Source of the DNA: a phage
DNA: 64,000 bases
Reading direction: 5' to 3' (one strand)
Sequence record: PZ151149.1
Part shown: in pieces, positions 4,167 to 17,074 of the stretch
How positions within the stretch are numbered: the stretch's first letter is position 1
Layout of the letters: every line of letters starts with the position of its first letter
Notes under the pieces: generated by a model
Database searches by the model: none
Told to the model about the DNA's origin: nothing
What the model saw: only the letters and a program-made list of their open reading frames with translations
Made by a program: the position numbers and the translations under genes

Positions 4167-4652
4167 TCAGTTGATACCTAAGCCAATGAAAATAGGTTGG
4201 TCTTCTACATTACCCATCCCAACACTAAGTCGATTTACTTCTAAAAACTGCAATACGCTGTCAGTAAATCCTCGCATGGTAGTATCTAGGATAAAGATTG
4301 TTTTGTCAAGACTACGACCTCGCCAAGTGATCGGATTCAGGAAAGTTCGGATCGAAGTGCAATCTACATTTGAAATGTTGATATTTTCACCGCGACCGCG
4401 TTCTCGGATCGTTTTGGCATGTTCCCGCGTTGTTGAAACGATAAAAACACTATATCCTTTTCGCGTATAATGGTCATATAACTTGATTGTAGCGTCTGTA
4501 TGCCCTGTTTGACGGCCTAAATTGATTGAGACGATGGAATCTAGGTCATCAGCAAAATTACGTCGCTTACGGCGTTCTATGATGCCATCTACGGCAGATA
4601 CACACGCAGCATAAATCAAATCTTTACTTTCTAATTTTACATCAATATTCAT
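4167..4652 (-). CDS. hypothetical protein (161 aa)
   Basis: ORF with ATG start; no recognisable motif. Confidence 0.5.
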   Translation of the reverse strand: MNIDVKLESKDLIYAACVSAVDGIIERRKRRNFADDLDSIVSINLGRQTGHTDATIKLYDHYTRKGYSVFIVSTTREHAKTIRERGRGENINISNVDCTSIRTFLNPITWRGRSLDKTIFILDTTMRGFTDSVLQFLEVNRLSVGMGNVEDQPIFIGLGIN

Positions 4653-12582: not shown

Positions 12583-13116
12583 CTAAAAATTTAAACTAGC
12601 ATAATCTCCAAAATGTTCCTTTGCTGCTTCGTCATAAGCCTTTGCAGCATCAACTTCGTCAAGAAAGACGCCCAAATGGACCTTTCTACGATTGATTGAT
12701 ATCTGAGCACACCATTTGTTATTCTGTGTTCTAATCACTCCTTTATACTTACTCTTACAACCATCAAGTTTTCCGCGATTGAATGCATTTTCCTGAGAAG
12801 TGGATTCTCTCAAGTTATCCGGTGCATTATTTTCTCGGTTTCTATCTATATGGTCGATCATTTTAACTTGCGTACCATGTTCAAGATACCAAACAACCCT
12901 ATGAACTTTAATGACCAAAGAATAGCCATCACTGCGCCAAAACTTAAAACATAGATAACCTCGACTATTTTTATAAACTTTAACCGGGTCTCCTGCCTTA
13001 TACCATCGACCATTCTTTCCACTATCTTTCAAATGGTACAATATACCATTAACGTGTTTATACTTATCTCTAATTTCTTTTTGTGTAAAATCATCCCACA
13101 TCTTAAACCCAGACAT
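12583..13116 (-). CDS. HNH homing endonuclease with C-terminal AP2 DNA-binding domain
   Basis: HNH motif IDHIDRNRENNAPDNLRESTSQENAFN; AP2-like YKGVIRTQNNKWCAQISINRRKVHLGVFLDEVDAAKAYDEAA; inserted between genes 3 and 2. Confidence 0.7.
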   Translation of the reverse strand: MSGFKMWDDFTQKEIRDKYKHVNGILYHLKDSGKNGRWYKAGDPVKVYKNSRGYLCFKFWRSDGYSLVIKVHRVVWYLEHGTQVKMIDHIDRNRENNAPDNLRESTSQENAFNRGKLDGCKSKYKGVIRTQNNKWCAQISINRRKVHLGVFLDEVDAAKAYDEAAKEHFGDYASLNF

Positions 13117-13152
13117 ACATTTTCTCCTGATAATATTATTAATAACAACATC

Positions 13153-13182
13153 AATCTAACATATCTAGTATATAATGTCAAT
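13153..13182 (-). promoter_or_regulatory. possible sigma70-like promoter (TTGACA-N18-TAGATT) for the AP2-HNH gene
   Basis: Hexamers on minus strand; 18-nt spacer. Confidence 0.35.
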
Positions 13183-13592: not shown

Positions 13593-13622
13593 AAAAAGCC
13601 CGTCAATGACGGGCTTAATTTT
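13593..13622. terminator. bidirectional rho-independent terminator
   Basis: Hairpin AGCCCGTC-AATG-ACGGGCT flanked by A-run and T-rich run; convergent genes on both sides. Confidence 0.6.
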
Positions 13623-14649
13623 AATATGTATCAGCTAATTTAATTATGTTATCAAGTTCCGTGATTGGTAAAGTTTCTGTGTATCCATCTTTCAACATGG
13701 ATTTATCAACAACGCCACAATGATAAGTTCTCTTTATTTCCTTTTCAAGTTCCCACGGAATCCAGCCATCAACACTTTGTTTGACGTAAACAAGTTTGTG
13801 AACAAACTTAGATTTCTGCATATGTTGTTTCATTCTGGTTTCCGGTAATTCATTGGTTACACCAAACTTTATAAATTTATCATCTAACGTCTGGATATAA
13901 AAATATCCCATCTCAGATGGACGATAGCCAGAAGAACTACATTTCGGACACCCTTTAGCATTTCTGTTGAACGTACAATATCTTACAGAAAATTCGGCGT
14001 CATGTTTTGTACATTTAAGTTTTATCCATGAATTTGCAGTACCTATCCATTCACCATCGACACCTATATATTCATACCCTAACTTTTTACATTTATCTTC
14101 TATTCTAGATAGTGCATCTTCCACGGGAACGACATATTCCGTCTTAAATTGTTCAGCCGCACATTTCTTACAACCACATGTACCATGATTTTTAAAATCA
14201 AAGAACTTTGTATTCTTCCAAATATGGTCATGTTTCTTGCATCTAAGAATCATCTTAGTAATTTGTGATTTCCAGCCACCAACAAATCCCAAAAATTCAT
14301 AATCAAGATCTTTACATTTTTCTTCAATGAATTTGGTTGCTTCATCTTCTGTCATAACTCCCCTACATTGAGGGCAACCAACAATAACCTTTTTAGCATA
14401 GAAACTATTACTGGAAACATCATAGACAGTTCCATGCTTATTGCATTGGATAACAGATCTAGTCAATTTTCCTTTCCATTCTCCAGTAAATCCTAAGAAT
14501 GTATGGTCGACAAGTTTACATCTTTCAATAACTTTATCTGCAAACTCTCTAGGAGATTTTGTTACCTTGTTTACTCTGTATTCTATTTCTTCCGGTTGAC
14601 GAAGATCATAAACGTGGGGATTTCTCCCCACGGAATTAATATTAAGCAT
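13621..14649 (-). CDS. putative endonuclease-like protein: three tandem Cys-containing repeats plus C-terminal GIY-YIG-like (T5orf172-like) motif
   Basis: Three roughly 85-aa repeats each with FLGF.GEWKG...C.KH...W...GC..C pattern; C-terminal GYFYIQ...KFGVT...R..H resembles a GIY-YIG core; ATG at 14649 just after gene 2 stop. Confidence 0.5.
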   Translation of the reverse strand: MLNINSVGRNPHVYDLRQPEEIEYRVNKVTKSPREFADKVIERCKLVDHTFLGFTGEWKGKLTRSVIQCNKHGTVYDVSSNSFYAKKVIVGCPQCRGVMTEDEATKFIEEKCKDLDYEFLGFVGGWKSQITKMILRCKKHDHIWKNTKFFDFKNHGTCGCKKCAAEQFKTEYVVPVEDALSRIEDKCKKLGYEYIGVDGEWIGTANSWIKLKCTKHDAEFSVRYCTFNRNAKGCPKCSSSGYRPSEMGYFYIQTLDDKFIKFGVTNELPETRMKQHMQKSKFVHKLVYVKQSVDGWIPWELEKEIKRTYHCGVVDKSMLKDGYTETLPITELDNIIKLADTY

Positions 14650-15463
14650 CTTTCCACACCTTCCTTGCATCATAGTTTTTACCTTTAGAAACAAATTTAT
14701 ATGTGTTAAGGTAGATAATATTGCTCCAGTCTTTCGGGCTAATCTCAACAAGTTTTGTTTTAATGTGTCCCGGTAGATATGCTTTGATCATGTGGTCACT
14801 ACCACGCATACCTTTTACATCACTCCATTTAATCTTCAAGCGTGTTTTATTGCTCAAGGTAGGAGTAGATGCATATTGCTTTAAAAGTGCTTCCAGAAAC
14901 TGCTGACGGGCTTTAGGCGTTACATAGTGTAAGTTAAGACCCAGCATTACAGTATTACCCGCCTTTGTCTTAGAATCACCCAGACAAATGATCAGCGGGA
15001 AAACATCCCAATATGGCAAAGTATCTTTATACTTCGCATCATACATAAAGGTATAGATTCGCCCTACTTGCGGTTTTACAATCTGGTGTCCCTTTATTCC
15101 AGCTTTTATTGTTTTAGTAAACCACTCCTGTGATTTTTCTTTAGGACGACTCTTTGATACAGCACGCATAGACGCACGAAAATCATTAATCATCATCATT
15201 GCGCGTTGCTGCTTATTGAGACCCTTTGCACCTTTCCCTTTTAGTTTTTCAACTTCTATTGCTGTTTTAATTTCGCTGGCATAACGAGACATACTTTTAG
15301 TGAAAGTCGCATAGGCTATTCCCTTAGAATCTGCAAATGCTTTAGCTGTCATTCCTTTGGCTTTTGCTTTCGCAAATTCTACACCCAATTCGACCCACTG
15401 TTTAGACTTTCGCTTTTGGGGAGACGGCTTTTCGTCTTCTGTGATTATTTCAAATACGCTCAT
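14642..15463 (-). CDS. 2: DNA end protector protein gp2
   Basis: 273 aa from ATG at 15463 (T4 gp2 is 274 aa); basic N-terminus; position between gene 3 side and gene 4 as in T4. Confidence 0.7.
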   Translation of the reverse strand: MSVFEIITEDEKPSPQKRKSKQWVELGVEFAKAKAKGMTAKAFADSKGIAYATFTKSMSRYASEIKTAIEVEKLKGKGAKGLNKQQRAMMMINDFRASMRAVSKSRPKEKSQEWFTKTIKAGIKGHQIVKPQVGRIYTFMYDAKYKDTLPYWDVFPLIICLGDSKTKAGNTVMLGLNLHYVTPKARQQFLEALLKQYASTPTLSNKTRLKIKWSDVKGMRGSDHMIKAYLPGHIKTKLVEISPKDWSNIIYLNTYKFVSKGKNYDARKVWKDA

Positions 15464-15497
15464 AATATTGTCCTCTATGTTTATGTTTGTTACACAC

Positions 15498-15526
15498 TTG
15501 ACAATCCTCTTTGCTATTGCTAAAAT
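15498..15526 (+). promoter_or_regulatory. sigma70-like promoter (TTGACA-N17-TAAAAT) for the HNH-NUMOD3 gene
   Basis: Hexamers with 17-nt spacer about 65 nt upstream of ATG. Confidence 0.5.
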
Positions 15527-15589
15527 GCAGACGAAAATAAACAGCGATACTTGTTGATAAATATCATTATAACACAGGAGGAACATTAG

Positions 15590-16612
15590 ATGCAAGATAT
15601 TAAGAACAAAATTTTGATGCAGTTTCCGAATGCAGATATCAAGTATTTAGAAAAGTATCTAGAAATTTGTGCAAACCCAGATAAGGATGGGGAATTAGAG
15701 AGGCATCATATTCTACCAAAATCAATTTGGAAGGAATATGAAGACCTTAAAATTCATGATTTTAATGCTGTTCACTTGAACACCGTTCGTCATATGATGG
15801 CACACTACTATTTCAGTAAAGCAACAAATTCCATTTGGAAGTCTGTTGTTATGATGTTTAATACCAGAATTGATATTATGAAGGAATTGCCAGAAGATAT
15901 TGTGTTGAAACTTGCTGGTATATCAGAAGAGGCAAAGCGAAAACATGTATACACGGAAGAATCTAGACTGAAAATGTCGGAATCACAAAAACGTTTCATG
16001 GCTTCTCTTGATGAAGAAGAATTAAAACGTCGCCATAAGAAAAGAACTGATTCCGTTAAAGAACATTTTAGAAACTTGAGCGATGAAGAACGAGAAAGAA
16101 AGTATAAAGAACGTGGCAAGAAAATATCAAAGGCGTTAAGTAATAGATCAGAGGAAAAACTTAAATTACGAAGAGAAAGGCTTCTACAAACTATAAACTC
16201 AAAGTCAGACGAAGAAAAACAAAGAATCGCCAAACTACTTTCAGATTCACAAAAACCGAAAGAAACATGGGGAAAATTTGATGAGTTATATGCATTATGG
16301 ATTGATCTGAATATGCCGGGTCAATATGTATTCAAGCGCGAGGCCATTAAACGTGGATACCCAGATAGGTCATATGATTACATCGTTAAAGAAATGAAAA
16401 ATAAGTACATAAAGGAGAATGGAAACGACATAATAAAATTAAATCCCAGAAAAAATTCTGGTGTCTGGGTATATTATGACGAAATATATAAGCTGTGGAA
16501 AGAAAATGGTATGCCTAGCGATAGAAAAACAAGAAAAATAGCGGTCGAGAATGGTTATCCCGACCAATGCTATCAAACTATAGTAAAAGACTTTAAGAAC
16601 TCACTTATTTAA
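15590..16612 (+). CDS. HNH homing endonuclease with NUMOD3-like repeats
   Basis: HNH motif ERHHILPKS...N.V.L....H..H; several S/T-EE-x-[RK]-x-K-x-S repeats resembling NUMOD3; opposite strand to flanking genes 2 and 4; own sigma70-like promoter and AGGAGG RBS. Confidence 0.7.
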   Translation: MQDIKNKILMQFPNADIKYLEKYLEICANPDKDGELERHHILPKSIWKEYEDLKIHDFNAVHLNTVRHMMAHYYFSKATNSIWKSVVMMFNTRIDIMKELPEDIVLKLAGISEEAKRKHVYTEESRLKMSESQKRFMASLDEEELKRRHKKRTDSVKEHFRNLSDEERERKYKERGKKISKALSNRSEEKLKLRRERLLQTINSKSDEEKQRIAKLLSDSQKPKETWGKFDELYALWIDLNMPGQYVFKREAIKRGYPDRSYDYIVKEMKNKYIKENGNDIIKLNPRKNSGVWVYYDEIYKLWKENGMPSDRKTRKIAVENGYPDQCYQTIVKDFKNSLI

Positions 16613-17074
16613 ACCTTTAAAACCGAACACCTTTTTTAATGTGTGTTCGGTTATGATTTTAAATTCCATATTATGTTTTTTACACAATGCTACTGCCGCT
16701 GCCCACTTTTCGGTATTTTTCGTCCACGTCCAAGCCTCCATCATATAACGCTGCTTTGTTTTAGTCGTTAATCGCTTTGGCTTTTCTGGTGGTCTAGTCT
16801 CTTTGGCTGGCTTAATTTCCCATAAATGCTCTTTTCCATCATCAAACTTAACATAAACATCAACAAAATATCTGTGACGCTTACCGTCTGTTGATGAATT
16901 GTAAGGAATTACAACGGTCTCAGATCCCCATTTAACCACATGAGGATTACGGTCACACCATTTAAAAACATGCAATTCCCAGCTTGAACGGTATGTGATT
17001 TTCCGTATATCCCCTTTATACTTTTCCTTATTCTCAGGAACATACTTGCCCTTATAAGTGTTAGATCCTCCCAT
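16601..17074 (-). CDS. 4: head completion protein gp4
   Basis: Size (157 aa) and divergent position next to gene 53 as in T4. Confidence 0.75.
   Translation of the reverse strand: MGGSNTYKGKYVPENKEKYKGDIRKITYRSSWELHVFKWCDRNPHVVKWGSETVVIPYNSSTDGKRHRYFVDVYVKFDDGKEHLWEIKPAKETRPPEKPKRLTTKTKQRYMMEAWTWTKNTEKWAAAVALCKKHNMEFKIITEHTLKKVFGFKGLNK

Follow-up and report, generated by a model that had tools for sequence, protein, structure and literature searches.

The open reading frame (ORF) at positions 13621 to 14649 on the minus strand of the phage DNA studied here (sequence record PZ151149.1, a stretch of 64,000 nucleotides referred to as the window) probably encodes an active, free-standing homing endonuclease, which sequence comparison places in the CapR-repeat/T5orf172 class. 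The source of the window is a Krischvirus, i.e., a T4-type coliphage like RB49, Phi1, and ECD7, and the 2.6 kb surrounding the homing endonuclease gene (HEG) is 98% identical both to phage Cognac and to ECD7. Two properties by which HEGs are recognized were found at this locus. The gene is present or absent at one fixed site, with clean boundaries, in otherwise near-identical genomes, and it is flanked by a tract of the kind expected from co-conversion or target-site divergence, to which MIZ4 (the tract without the gene) and Phi1 (a third haplotype) are exceptions. The predicted protein consists of three zinc-ligand repeats followed by a nuclease domain. The preliminary description of this DNA suggested that this combination may be undescribed; it is a published and common class, to which the gene adds a well-behaved further example.

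The ORF encodes 342 amino acids, with an ATG start codon at 14649 and a TAA stop codon at 13621-13623 in the ORF list and its translation. The identical start is annotated in Cognac, ELT3, and G2248, and a longer, TTG-initiated reading (to 14751) merely extends back into the upstream gene. A search for paralogues of the protein elsewhere in the window found none. The gene and its parts are as follows.

13621..14649, minus strand: complete coding sequence (342 amino acids plus stop) of the putative homing endonuclease, CapR-repeat/T5orf172 type, from the ORF translation and the PHROG 681 match.
14551..14649, minus strand: N-terminal leader, residues 1-33, outside the repeats by sequence; predicted local distance difference test (pLDDT) value below 50 for residues 1-9.
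14347..14550, minus strand: CapR-type repeat 1, residues 34-101, putative zinc ligands C69, H72, C92, and C95; z = 19.8 to repeat 2, family repeat profile E = 2.3e-18.
14122..14346, minus strand: CapR-type repeat 2, residues 102-176, putative zinc ligands C137, H140, C160, and C163.
13909..14121, minus strand: CapR-type repeat 3, residues 177-247, putative zinc ligands C213, H216, C234, and C237; PF21817 at 30.7 bits, z = 17.8 to repeat 2.
13624..13908, minus strand: T5orf172/MUG113-like GIY-YIG nuclease domain, residues 248-342 (95 amino acids), with conserved Y251, K261-F262-G263, R272, H276, E302, and D321-G-Y-T-E-T326.

The three repeats are homologous to one another and have a period of 68 to 75 residues. 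Pairwise Smith-Waterman scores are 115 (repeats 1 and 2), 85 (repeats 1 and 3), and 109 (repeats 2 and 3), compared with approximately 24 ± 4.6 for shuffled controls (n = 1,000), which corresponds to z values of 13 to 20; none of the 1,000 shuffles reached an observed score. By the same measure, no repeat resembles the C-terminus (z < 1). With self-BLASTP at its default sensitivity, the internal repeats went unreported; the Smith-Waterman alignment with shuffles detected them. The self-alignment thus bears out the three cysteine-containing repeats of the preliminary description, with their motifs located as described. The repeats are shorter than the 85 residues or so given there, and of the N-terminal 250 residues assigned to them, residues 34-247 are repeat sequence and residues 1-33 are a nonrepeat leader. 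The FLGF motif starts at residues 51 and 119 (YIGV at 194), C-x-K-H at 69, 137, and 213, and C-x-x-C at 92, 160, and 234. Every repeat therefore offers the same ligand set, C-x2-H followed 19 to 21 residues later by C-x2-C. In 522 repeats from 185 related proteins, the four ligand positions are occupied by Cys (96%), His (54%) or Cys (20%), Cys (97%), and Cys (94%), respectively.

The zinc-ribbon-type module suspected earlier can be named. The whole protein matches the Pfam CapR homology domain (PF21817) with 54.6 bits against a gathering cutoff of 24.2, and repeats 2 and 3, scored singly, also exceed the cutoff (32.0 and 30.7 bits). Repeat 1 alone is below the cutoff for both CapR (18.6 bits) and DUF723 (18.8 bits); it is nevertheless clearly homologous to repeat 2, and it matches the family repeat profile built in this study. 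CapR is characterized by two zinc-ligand pairs approximately 20 to 26 residues apart, spelled CxxC...CxC (Netter 2021), and these are present here in a variant spelling, with His as the second ligand and CxxC instead of CxC. The repeats are therefore CapR homology domains by sequence, that is, predicted zinc-ligand modules of a DNA-binding type. An AlphaFold2 model computed from a 41-sequence alignment (mean pLDDT of 85, and approximately 95 in the C-terminal domain) has three equal helix-strand-strand-strand-helix units N-terminal to a strand-strand-helix-strand-helix domain, so that the structure prediction returned both the repeat units and the GIY-YIG-like core proposed earlier. The predicted template modeling score is low (0.41), which is compatible with beads on a string that are independent of one another. 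Searching the PDB with the full-length model (Foldseek) was uninformative; the best matches were tandem double-stranded RNA-binding domain proteins (E = 1.7e-3, TM of 0.13 to 0.17). We do not claim such a relationship; the bead-like model repeats its helix-strand-strand-strand-helix unit, and this probably accounts for the matches.

The C-terminus is a divergent member of the T5orf172/MUG113 branch of the GIY-YIG superfamily (T5orf172, PF10544; MUG113, PF13455), which agrees with the resemblance noted in the preliminary description and is supported by homologues, conserved residues, and alignment with the nuclease Odn of phage ICP1. The string GYFYIQ...KFGVT...R(x3)H lies at residues 248-276. 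The isolated C-terminal 105 residues match 440 cluster representatives at E ≤ 1e-3; 31 of 145 aligned C-terminal homologues match MUG113 and 16 match T5orf172 (E ≤ 1e-3). Of the 41 full-length homologues, 11 match MUG113 and 11 match T5orf172. One example, P0019, matches the query with E = 2.1e-18 and itself carries PF13455. Across the alignments of 41 and 145 homologues, Y251, K261, G263, R272, E302, and D321-G-Y-T-E-T326 are invariant or nearly so; Y251, R272, and E302, which correspond to the catalytic Tyr, Arg, and Glu of GIY-YIG enzymes, are invariant or at least 90% conserved. The order of secondary-structure elements in the model is that of the GIY-YIG core fold. In the family profile, E302 aligns with the catalytic E180 of Odn, the mutation of which to alanine abolishes cleavage in vitro and in vivo (PMC8263062).

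The protein as a whole matches PHROG 681, "endonuclease" (E = 1.6e-79, residues 18-339), and an NCBIfam search returned no family. Near-identical genes have already been given such names: RefSeq annotates the orthologues of ECD7 and Phi1 as "endonuclease," and Skers has a "putative GIY-YIG nuclease family protein." The Phi1 copy (ORF 130.1) is not discussed in the paper on the Phi1 genome (PMC2839356). Phage T5orf172 homing endonucleases with repeated CapR domains were described by Netter 2021 (PMC8096241) and Barth 2023 (PMC10448857). Of the T5orf172 HEGs, 87% carry CapR, DUF723, or related zinc modules, mostly repeated, and recombination shuffles the repeats (PMC10448857). Among the 191 proteins that we collected with this nuclease domain, 185 contain CapR-like repeats (1 to 7 each), and three is the commonest number (77 proteins). 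tblastn found relatives in 446 phage records, with Escherichia, Vibrio, Salmonella, Aeromonas, Klebsiella, and others as hosts. RB49 encodes a 485-residue paralogue, RB49p240, annotated as "endonuclease," between gene 32 and frd (1015-2472 of the retrieved locus, L016), whose closely related nuclease domain scores 125 bits against the family profile; because of this paralogue, the class occurs at more than one Krischvirus locus.

The closest described counterparts are the putative HEGs of ICP1 (Gp130/tcgB, Gp165, Gp174, Gp121, and Gp53), which likewise have N-terminal CapR repeats and a C-terminal T5orf172-type domain (PMC8096241, PMC10448857). Gp130 is 25.9% identical to the protein studied here over residues 108-342 (tblastn, E = 3e-6), and its nuclease domain scores 63.7 bits with the family profile. 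Both the ICP1 genes and this one are free-standing, lie beside essential genes at boundaries of sequence exchange, and have DNA-binding repeats that are shuffled between alleles. The present gene differs in residing in a T4-type coliphage of the Straboviridae and in having a nuclease domain too divergent for a direct Pfam T5orf172 match. CapR itself, after which the Pfam family is named, represses the capsid operon of the Vibrio cholerae satellite PLE; it binds DNA in electrophoretic mobility shift assays, and a Cys-to-Ser mutant showed that its Cys ligands are required (PMC8096241). PLE CapR is the only protein with this domain for which such binding is known. It is homologous to the repeat unit and shares the zinc-ligand motif, although the first zinc knuckle here is C-x2-H rather than C-x2-C. 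It is a 15.5-kDa single-domain repressor without a nuclease, whereas the protein studied here has three repeats and a nuclease. Netter et al. proposed T5orf172 homing endonucleases of ICP1 as the source of CapR, which would have arisen from their N-terminal domains (PMC8096241).

Odn (Gp88) of ICP1 belongs to the same nuclease family, with aligned Y-x-Y-[VI], [IV]-K-[VF]-G, and E-x-R motifs in addition to the catalytic Glu, and it is the only member of the T5orf172 branch with demonstrated cleavage in vitro (PMC8263062). Its similarity to the family profile is weak (14.4 bits), and it differs in having a RepA_N DNA-binding domain instead of CapR repeats and in serving as an antisatellite weapon instead of a homing element. 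I-TevI and SegA-G of T4 have an N-terminal GIY-YIG domain and a C-terminal NUMOD/helix-turn-helix region with one zinc finger, whereas the order is reversed here and the zinc modules are CapR repeats. The gene is not of the Seg/I-TevI type, because the nuclease is C-terminal and I-TevI is not detected by sequence or by the family profile. SLX1 and HIGLE, structure-specific GIY-YIG nucleases of eukaryotic DNA repair that have a RING/PHD partner domain and pair with SLX4, are alike in fold only. With regard to the related zinc modules DUF4379 (PF14311) and DUF723 (PF05265), the repeats score best as CapR; only repeat 1 resembles DUF723 weakly, below the cutoff. In our scans, the module found alongside CapR in these proteins is PF14311 (DUF4379), and Barth 2023 (PMC10448857) names the related module "DUF4397 (PF14344)" in the text and "DUF723/4379" in a figure legend.

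The gene was found in 11 of 59 Krischvirus records, which represent about 9 distinct phages of about 55. It lies in the late-gene region, among gp3, an 84-residue ORF, gp2 (DNA end protector), gp4, and gp53. Compared with MIZ4, the window contains three separate insertions, numbered 1 to 3, of which insert 2 is the HEG. The elements at the insertion site are listed below.

13624..14629, no strand assigned: extent of insert 2 (approximately 1,006 bp) relative to HEG-less Krischviruses such as MIZ4, from blastn and junction alignment with MIZ4 (L002) and 7 further empty-site genomes.
14642..15463, minus strand: gp2, the gene upstream of the HEG, from the annotated orthologues in ECD7, Phi1, and MIZ4 and from Pfam Phage_T4_gp2 on the orthologue in contig L018.
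13596..13616, no strand assigned: bidirectional intrinsic terminator hairpin, from a terminator scan of both strands, annotation in GEC-3S, Makalu_002, and G2248, and the junction alignment.
14646..14725, minus strand: hyperdivergent patch (80 nt) at the 3' end of gp2 beside the insertion, from identity with noncarriers; it also holds the ribosome-binding region of the HEG.
14613..14632, minus strand: 8-bp hairpin with a GNRA loop (CGUGGGGA-GAAA-UCCCCACG) followed by the U-rich run UUUAUGAUCU, from terminator scan and folding.

Insert 2 sits exactly between the gp2 stop codon and the gp2 terminator. The terminator at 13596-13616 is directly 3' of gp2 in HEG-less phages; because of the position of the insert, it is now directly 3' of the HEG stop codon. 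The empty site is identical in all 8 HEG-less genomes examined. The boundaries are clean, although TTAAT, present at each junction, leaves about 5 nt of ambiguity in their placement. We considered TTAAT as a target-site duplication and rejected it, since HEGs make no such duplications; the repeat is probably fortuitous in AT-rich DNA. In ECD7 (approximately 4465-4479 of locus L001), there is a 6-nt ATTAAT duplication at HEG codons 2 and 3 (MLNININS versus MLNINS), within the TTAAT-containing AT-rich junction.

The flanks of 7 carriers and 8 noncarriers were aligned. In the patch at 14646-14725, the window is 69 to 78% identical to 7 of the 8 noncarriers, whereas the remaining 753 nt of gp2 is 97 to 98% identical. 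At the protein level, the patch reads ...YLNTYKFVSKGKN in carriers and ...YMPTYQFMSKGKK in noncarriers, and 9 nt before the HEG ATG, AAGGAAGG of the carriers is replaced by AAGGAAAG in the noncarriers. The three haplotypes of the patch track the presence of the HEG and its allele, Phi1 representing the third. This sharply bounded patch looks like, and is a candidate for, a co-conversion tract, a target-site (immunity) region, or both.

The HEG is intact in all 7 carrier genomes (the window and 6 other Krischviruses, with 342 to 344 residues), and no frameshifts or stop codons were found in these alleles or in 2 metagenomic ones. The Phi1 and window alleles differ at 10 of 101 residues in the leader and repeat 1, 30 of 75 in repeat 2, 28 of 71 in repeat 3, and 0 of 95 in the nuclease domain. 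In a 2.3-kb nucleotide comparison, Phi1 and the window diverge only at 13929-14378 (repeats 3 and 2) and at 14679-14728 (the gp2 patch). L018, a metagenomic Krischvirus-like contig with 80% identity overall, has a Phi1-type allele (P0002) together with a Phi1-type gp2 end (GNIIFMPTFRFLSKGKN), and because this pairing recurs, repeats 2 and 3 and the adjoining patch appear to travel together. Their co-travel hints that the patch serves in recognition or immunity; alternatively, both may descend together from one recombination tract. The two alleles, window type and Phi1 type, thus form a natural pair, with identical nuclease domains and near-identical first repeats, in which repeats 2 and 3 differ by approximately 40% and each allele is accompanied by its own gp2 patch. 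That the CapR repeats form a retargetable modular array, in which individual repeats set target specificity, is a tentative idea that we consider rather doubtful.

The HEG appears to be cotranscribed and start-stop coupled with gp2. Its ATG overlaps the final gp2 codons (ATGCTTAA), and the AAGGAAGG run 9 nt upstream, inside gp2, is Shine-Dalgarno-like. No T4 late promoter (TATAAATA) was found within 2 kb of the HEG, and the scan upstream of its start gave no convincing sigma-70 promoter, whereas inserts 1 and 3 do bring sigma-70-like promoters. The hairpin at 14632-14613 begins 10 nt past the gp2 stop codon, falls within HEG codons 6 to 13, and was scored as terminator-like. It is kept in all seven HEG-carrying loci, the sole change being in the loop (GAAA in the window, GCAA in the other carriers). 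This hairpin may stand in for the gp2 terminator that the insert displaced and limit HEG expression to what read-through provides.

Taken together, these features suggest how the element would operate. The three CapR-type zinc modules (C-x2-H...C-x2-C), arranged as beads on a string, would jointly recognize a long asymmetric DNA site, and the T5orf172-type GIY-YIG domain would cut nearby by means of Y251, R272, and E302. The most likely target would be the gp2 3' end or the gp2-terminator junction of related phages without the HEG. In a mixed infection, the break would be repaired from the HEG-carrying genome, and the repair would copy the HEG and the adjacent patch of approximately 80 nt into the recipient. 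Carriers would be protected, because the insertion and the diverged patch alter the site. Having no convincing promoter of its own, the HEG would be read from gp2 transcripts with a ribosome-binding site inside the gp2 end, and the terminator-like hairpin just past the start codon probably keeps expression low.

The two other insertions of the window relative to MIZ4 also carry endonuclease genes.

12584..13178: insert 1, with an ORF at 12583..13116, minus strand, encoding a 177-residue HNH_3 plus AP2 endonuclease (phrog_99, E = 1e-46).
15479..16613: insert 3, between gp2 and gp4, with an ORF at 15590..16612, plus strand, encoding a 340-residue HNH-type protein (phrog_655, "homing endonuclease"; no Pfam match).

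The endonuclease of insert 1 is of the "IPA-HNH" type of Barth 2023 and has a sigma-70-like promoter at 13181..13153; the insert is present in phiS and absent from ECD7, MIZ4, and most relatives. Insert 3 brings a sigma-70 promoter close to the consensus (15498-15526; TTGACA-17-TAAAAT with TG), and its 3' end overlaps gp4, which is convergent. The three neighboring inserts assort independently: all three are present in the window, 2 and 3 in Cognac, only 2 in ECD7 and Phi1, only 1 in phiS, only 3 in Makalu_002 and PHB13, and none in MIZ4, KFS-EC, and GEC-3S. A fourth insertion separates gp4 from gp53 in ELT4 (3249-3944 of L011) and Brandy (3251-3946 of L012); it is a gene of 696 nt called "homing endonuclease" and is not in the window. 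The gp3-gp53 interval is a hot spot, as it holds four independently occupied endonuclease insertion sites. With these sites around gp2 and gp4, it fits the picture of nucleases at the boundaries of genetic exchange.

Several points weigh against an active homing endonuclease of this class. No CapR/T5orf172 HEG has yet had its cleavage, target, or homing demonstrated by experiment, according to Barth et al. (PMC10448857). The C-terminus of the query is under every Pfam threshold; its best match is GIY-YIG PF01541 at 14.4 bits against 22.6 (E = 0.047), and T5orf172 and MUG113 are not matched at E ≤ 1 by the whole protein or at E ≤ 10 by the isolated domain. The second tyrosine of the motif (that of YIG) is replaced by F262. 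Alignment of the family with residues 1-92 of I-TevI (reference sequence verified as 100% T4) by hidden Markov model and by hhalign was not meaningful (hhalign probability of 0.7%), and the 145-member profile found nothing significant among PDB sequences, only weak DUF4379 mitoribosomal matches (E of approximately 0.03 to 0.07) and no GIY-YIG entry. Because there is no direct sequence similarity to I-TevI, the tie to canonical GIY-YIG enzymes rests on fold, Pfam transitivity, and Odn. As for the patch, MIZ4 has the carrier type beside an empty site, so the patch is not strictly tied to the HEG; gene loss, or a conversion that stopped short of the gene, is possible. The patch could also partly reflect the requirements of the HEG ribosome-binding site, or unrelated recombination.

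An unlikely alternative, though the best placed of those considered, is a domesticated or moonlighting DNA-binding protein, whose CapR array would regulate transcription at a phage or host site or which would exclude or attack a competitor, with homing not being its main function. A transcriptional role has precedents in PLE CapR, which descends from this HEG class and acts as a repressor on its own (PMC8096241), and in I-TevI, which acts as an autorepressor, and Odn is a T5orf172 nuclease retargeted against a satellite (PMC8263062). The location in a late structural operon, with translational coupling to gp2, would suit such a protein, and the seven intact alleles with a nuclease domain 100% conserved between diverged alleles suggest selection. 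Most Krischviruses, however, are viable without the gene, which argues against a conserved phage function; the clean empty site with a conversion-like flanking patch is typical of HEG traffic; and the catalytic residues are kept, unlike in the nuclease-less CapR. A reading as a defense system was rejected, since PADLOC gave only a ThsB match at chance level (E = 0.0034).

We regard as slightly less probable still an inactive or decaying selfish remnant, brought in by homing or recombination, that no longer cuts; the polymorphism would then stem from the usual recombination of a hot spot and not from ongoing homing. F262 and the sub-threshold scores for GIY-YIG and T5orf172 can be read in this way, but K-[F/I]-G instead of Y-I-G is the family norm, the usual T5orf172 form is K-[IVF]-G, and the active Odn has IKVG. 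The region is indeed a hot spot for recombination in general and for HEGs, which occupy four independent sites in it, and MIZ4 documents exchange of the patch without the gene. On the other hand, decay is not apparent in the nine uninterrupted alleles or in Y251, R272, and E302, which are invariant across 145 relatives, and the contrast between a nuclease domain with 0 of 95 residues diverged and repeats that differ by 40% indicates purifying selection or recent spread. A further reading, in which this Cys-rich phage protein is structural or otherwise unrelated to nucleases and resembles them by chance, is effectively refuted: the gene lies among virion genes (gp3, gp2, gp4, and gp53), but the homology that emerged is to PHROG 681 endonucleases and, above the Pfam cutoff, to CapR, the GIY-YIG fold matches, and the gene is absent from most sister phages.

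With an active homing endonuclease as the preferred reading, the finding taken alone matters little, since it adds one selfish nuclease gene to a class already published. T4 itself has no T5orf172 genes, and the genus Krischvirus is not mentioned by Barth et al. (PMC10448857). CapR/T5orf172 HEGs are shown here to occur in T4-type coliphages, a group in which the class had not been discussed, and the "hypothetical protein" annotation of the HEG in several Krischvirus genomes is corrected. To our knowledge, usually only Seg, Mob, and intron-encoded enzymes are considered in these phages. The locus is also convenient for experiments: carriers and noncarriers are both numerous among natural E. coli phages, the insert is defined and 1 kb long, an 80-nt patch is a candidate for the target or co-conversion tract, and the two alleles contrast only in two DNA-binding repeats. 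If the patch is the recognition or immunity site, such allele pairs could yield a recognition code for CapR modules, and, if the proposed function is correct, homing by a member of the CapR/T5orf172 class could be proved experimentally for the first time, in E. coli phages that are easy to work with.

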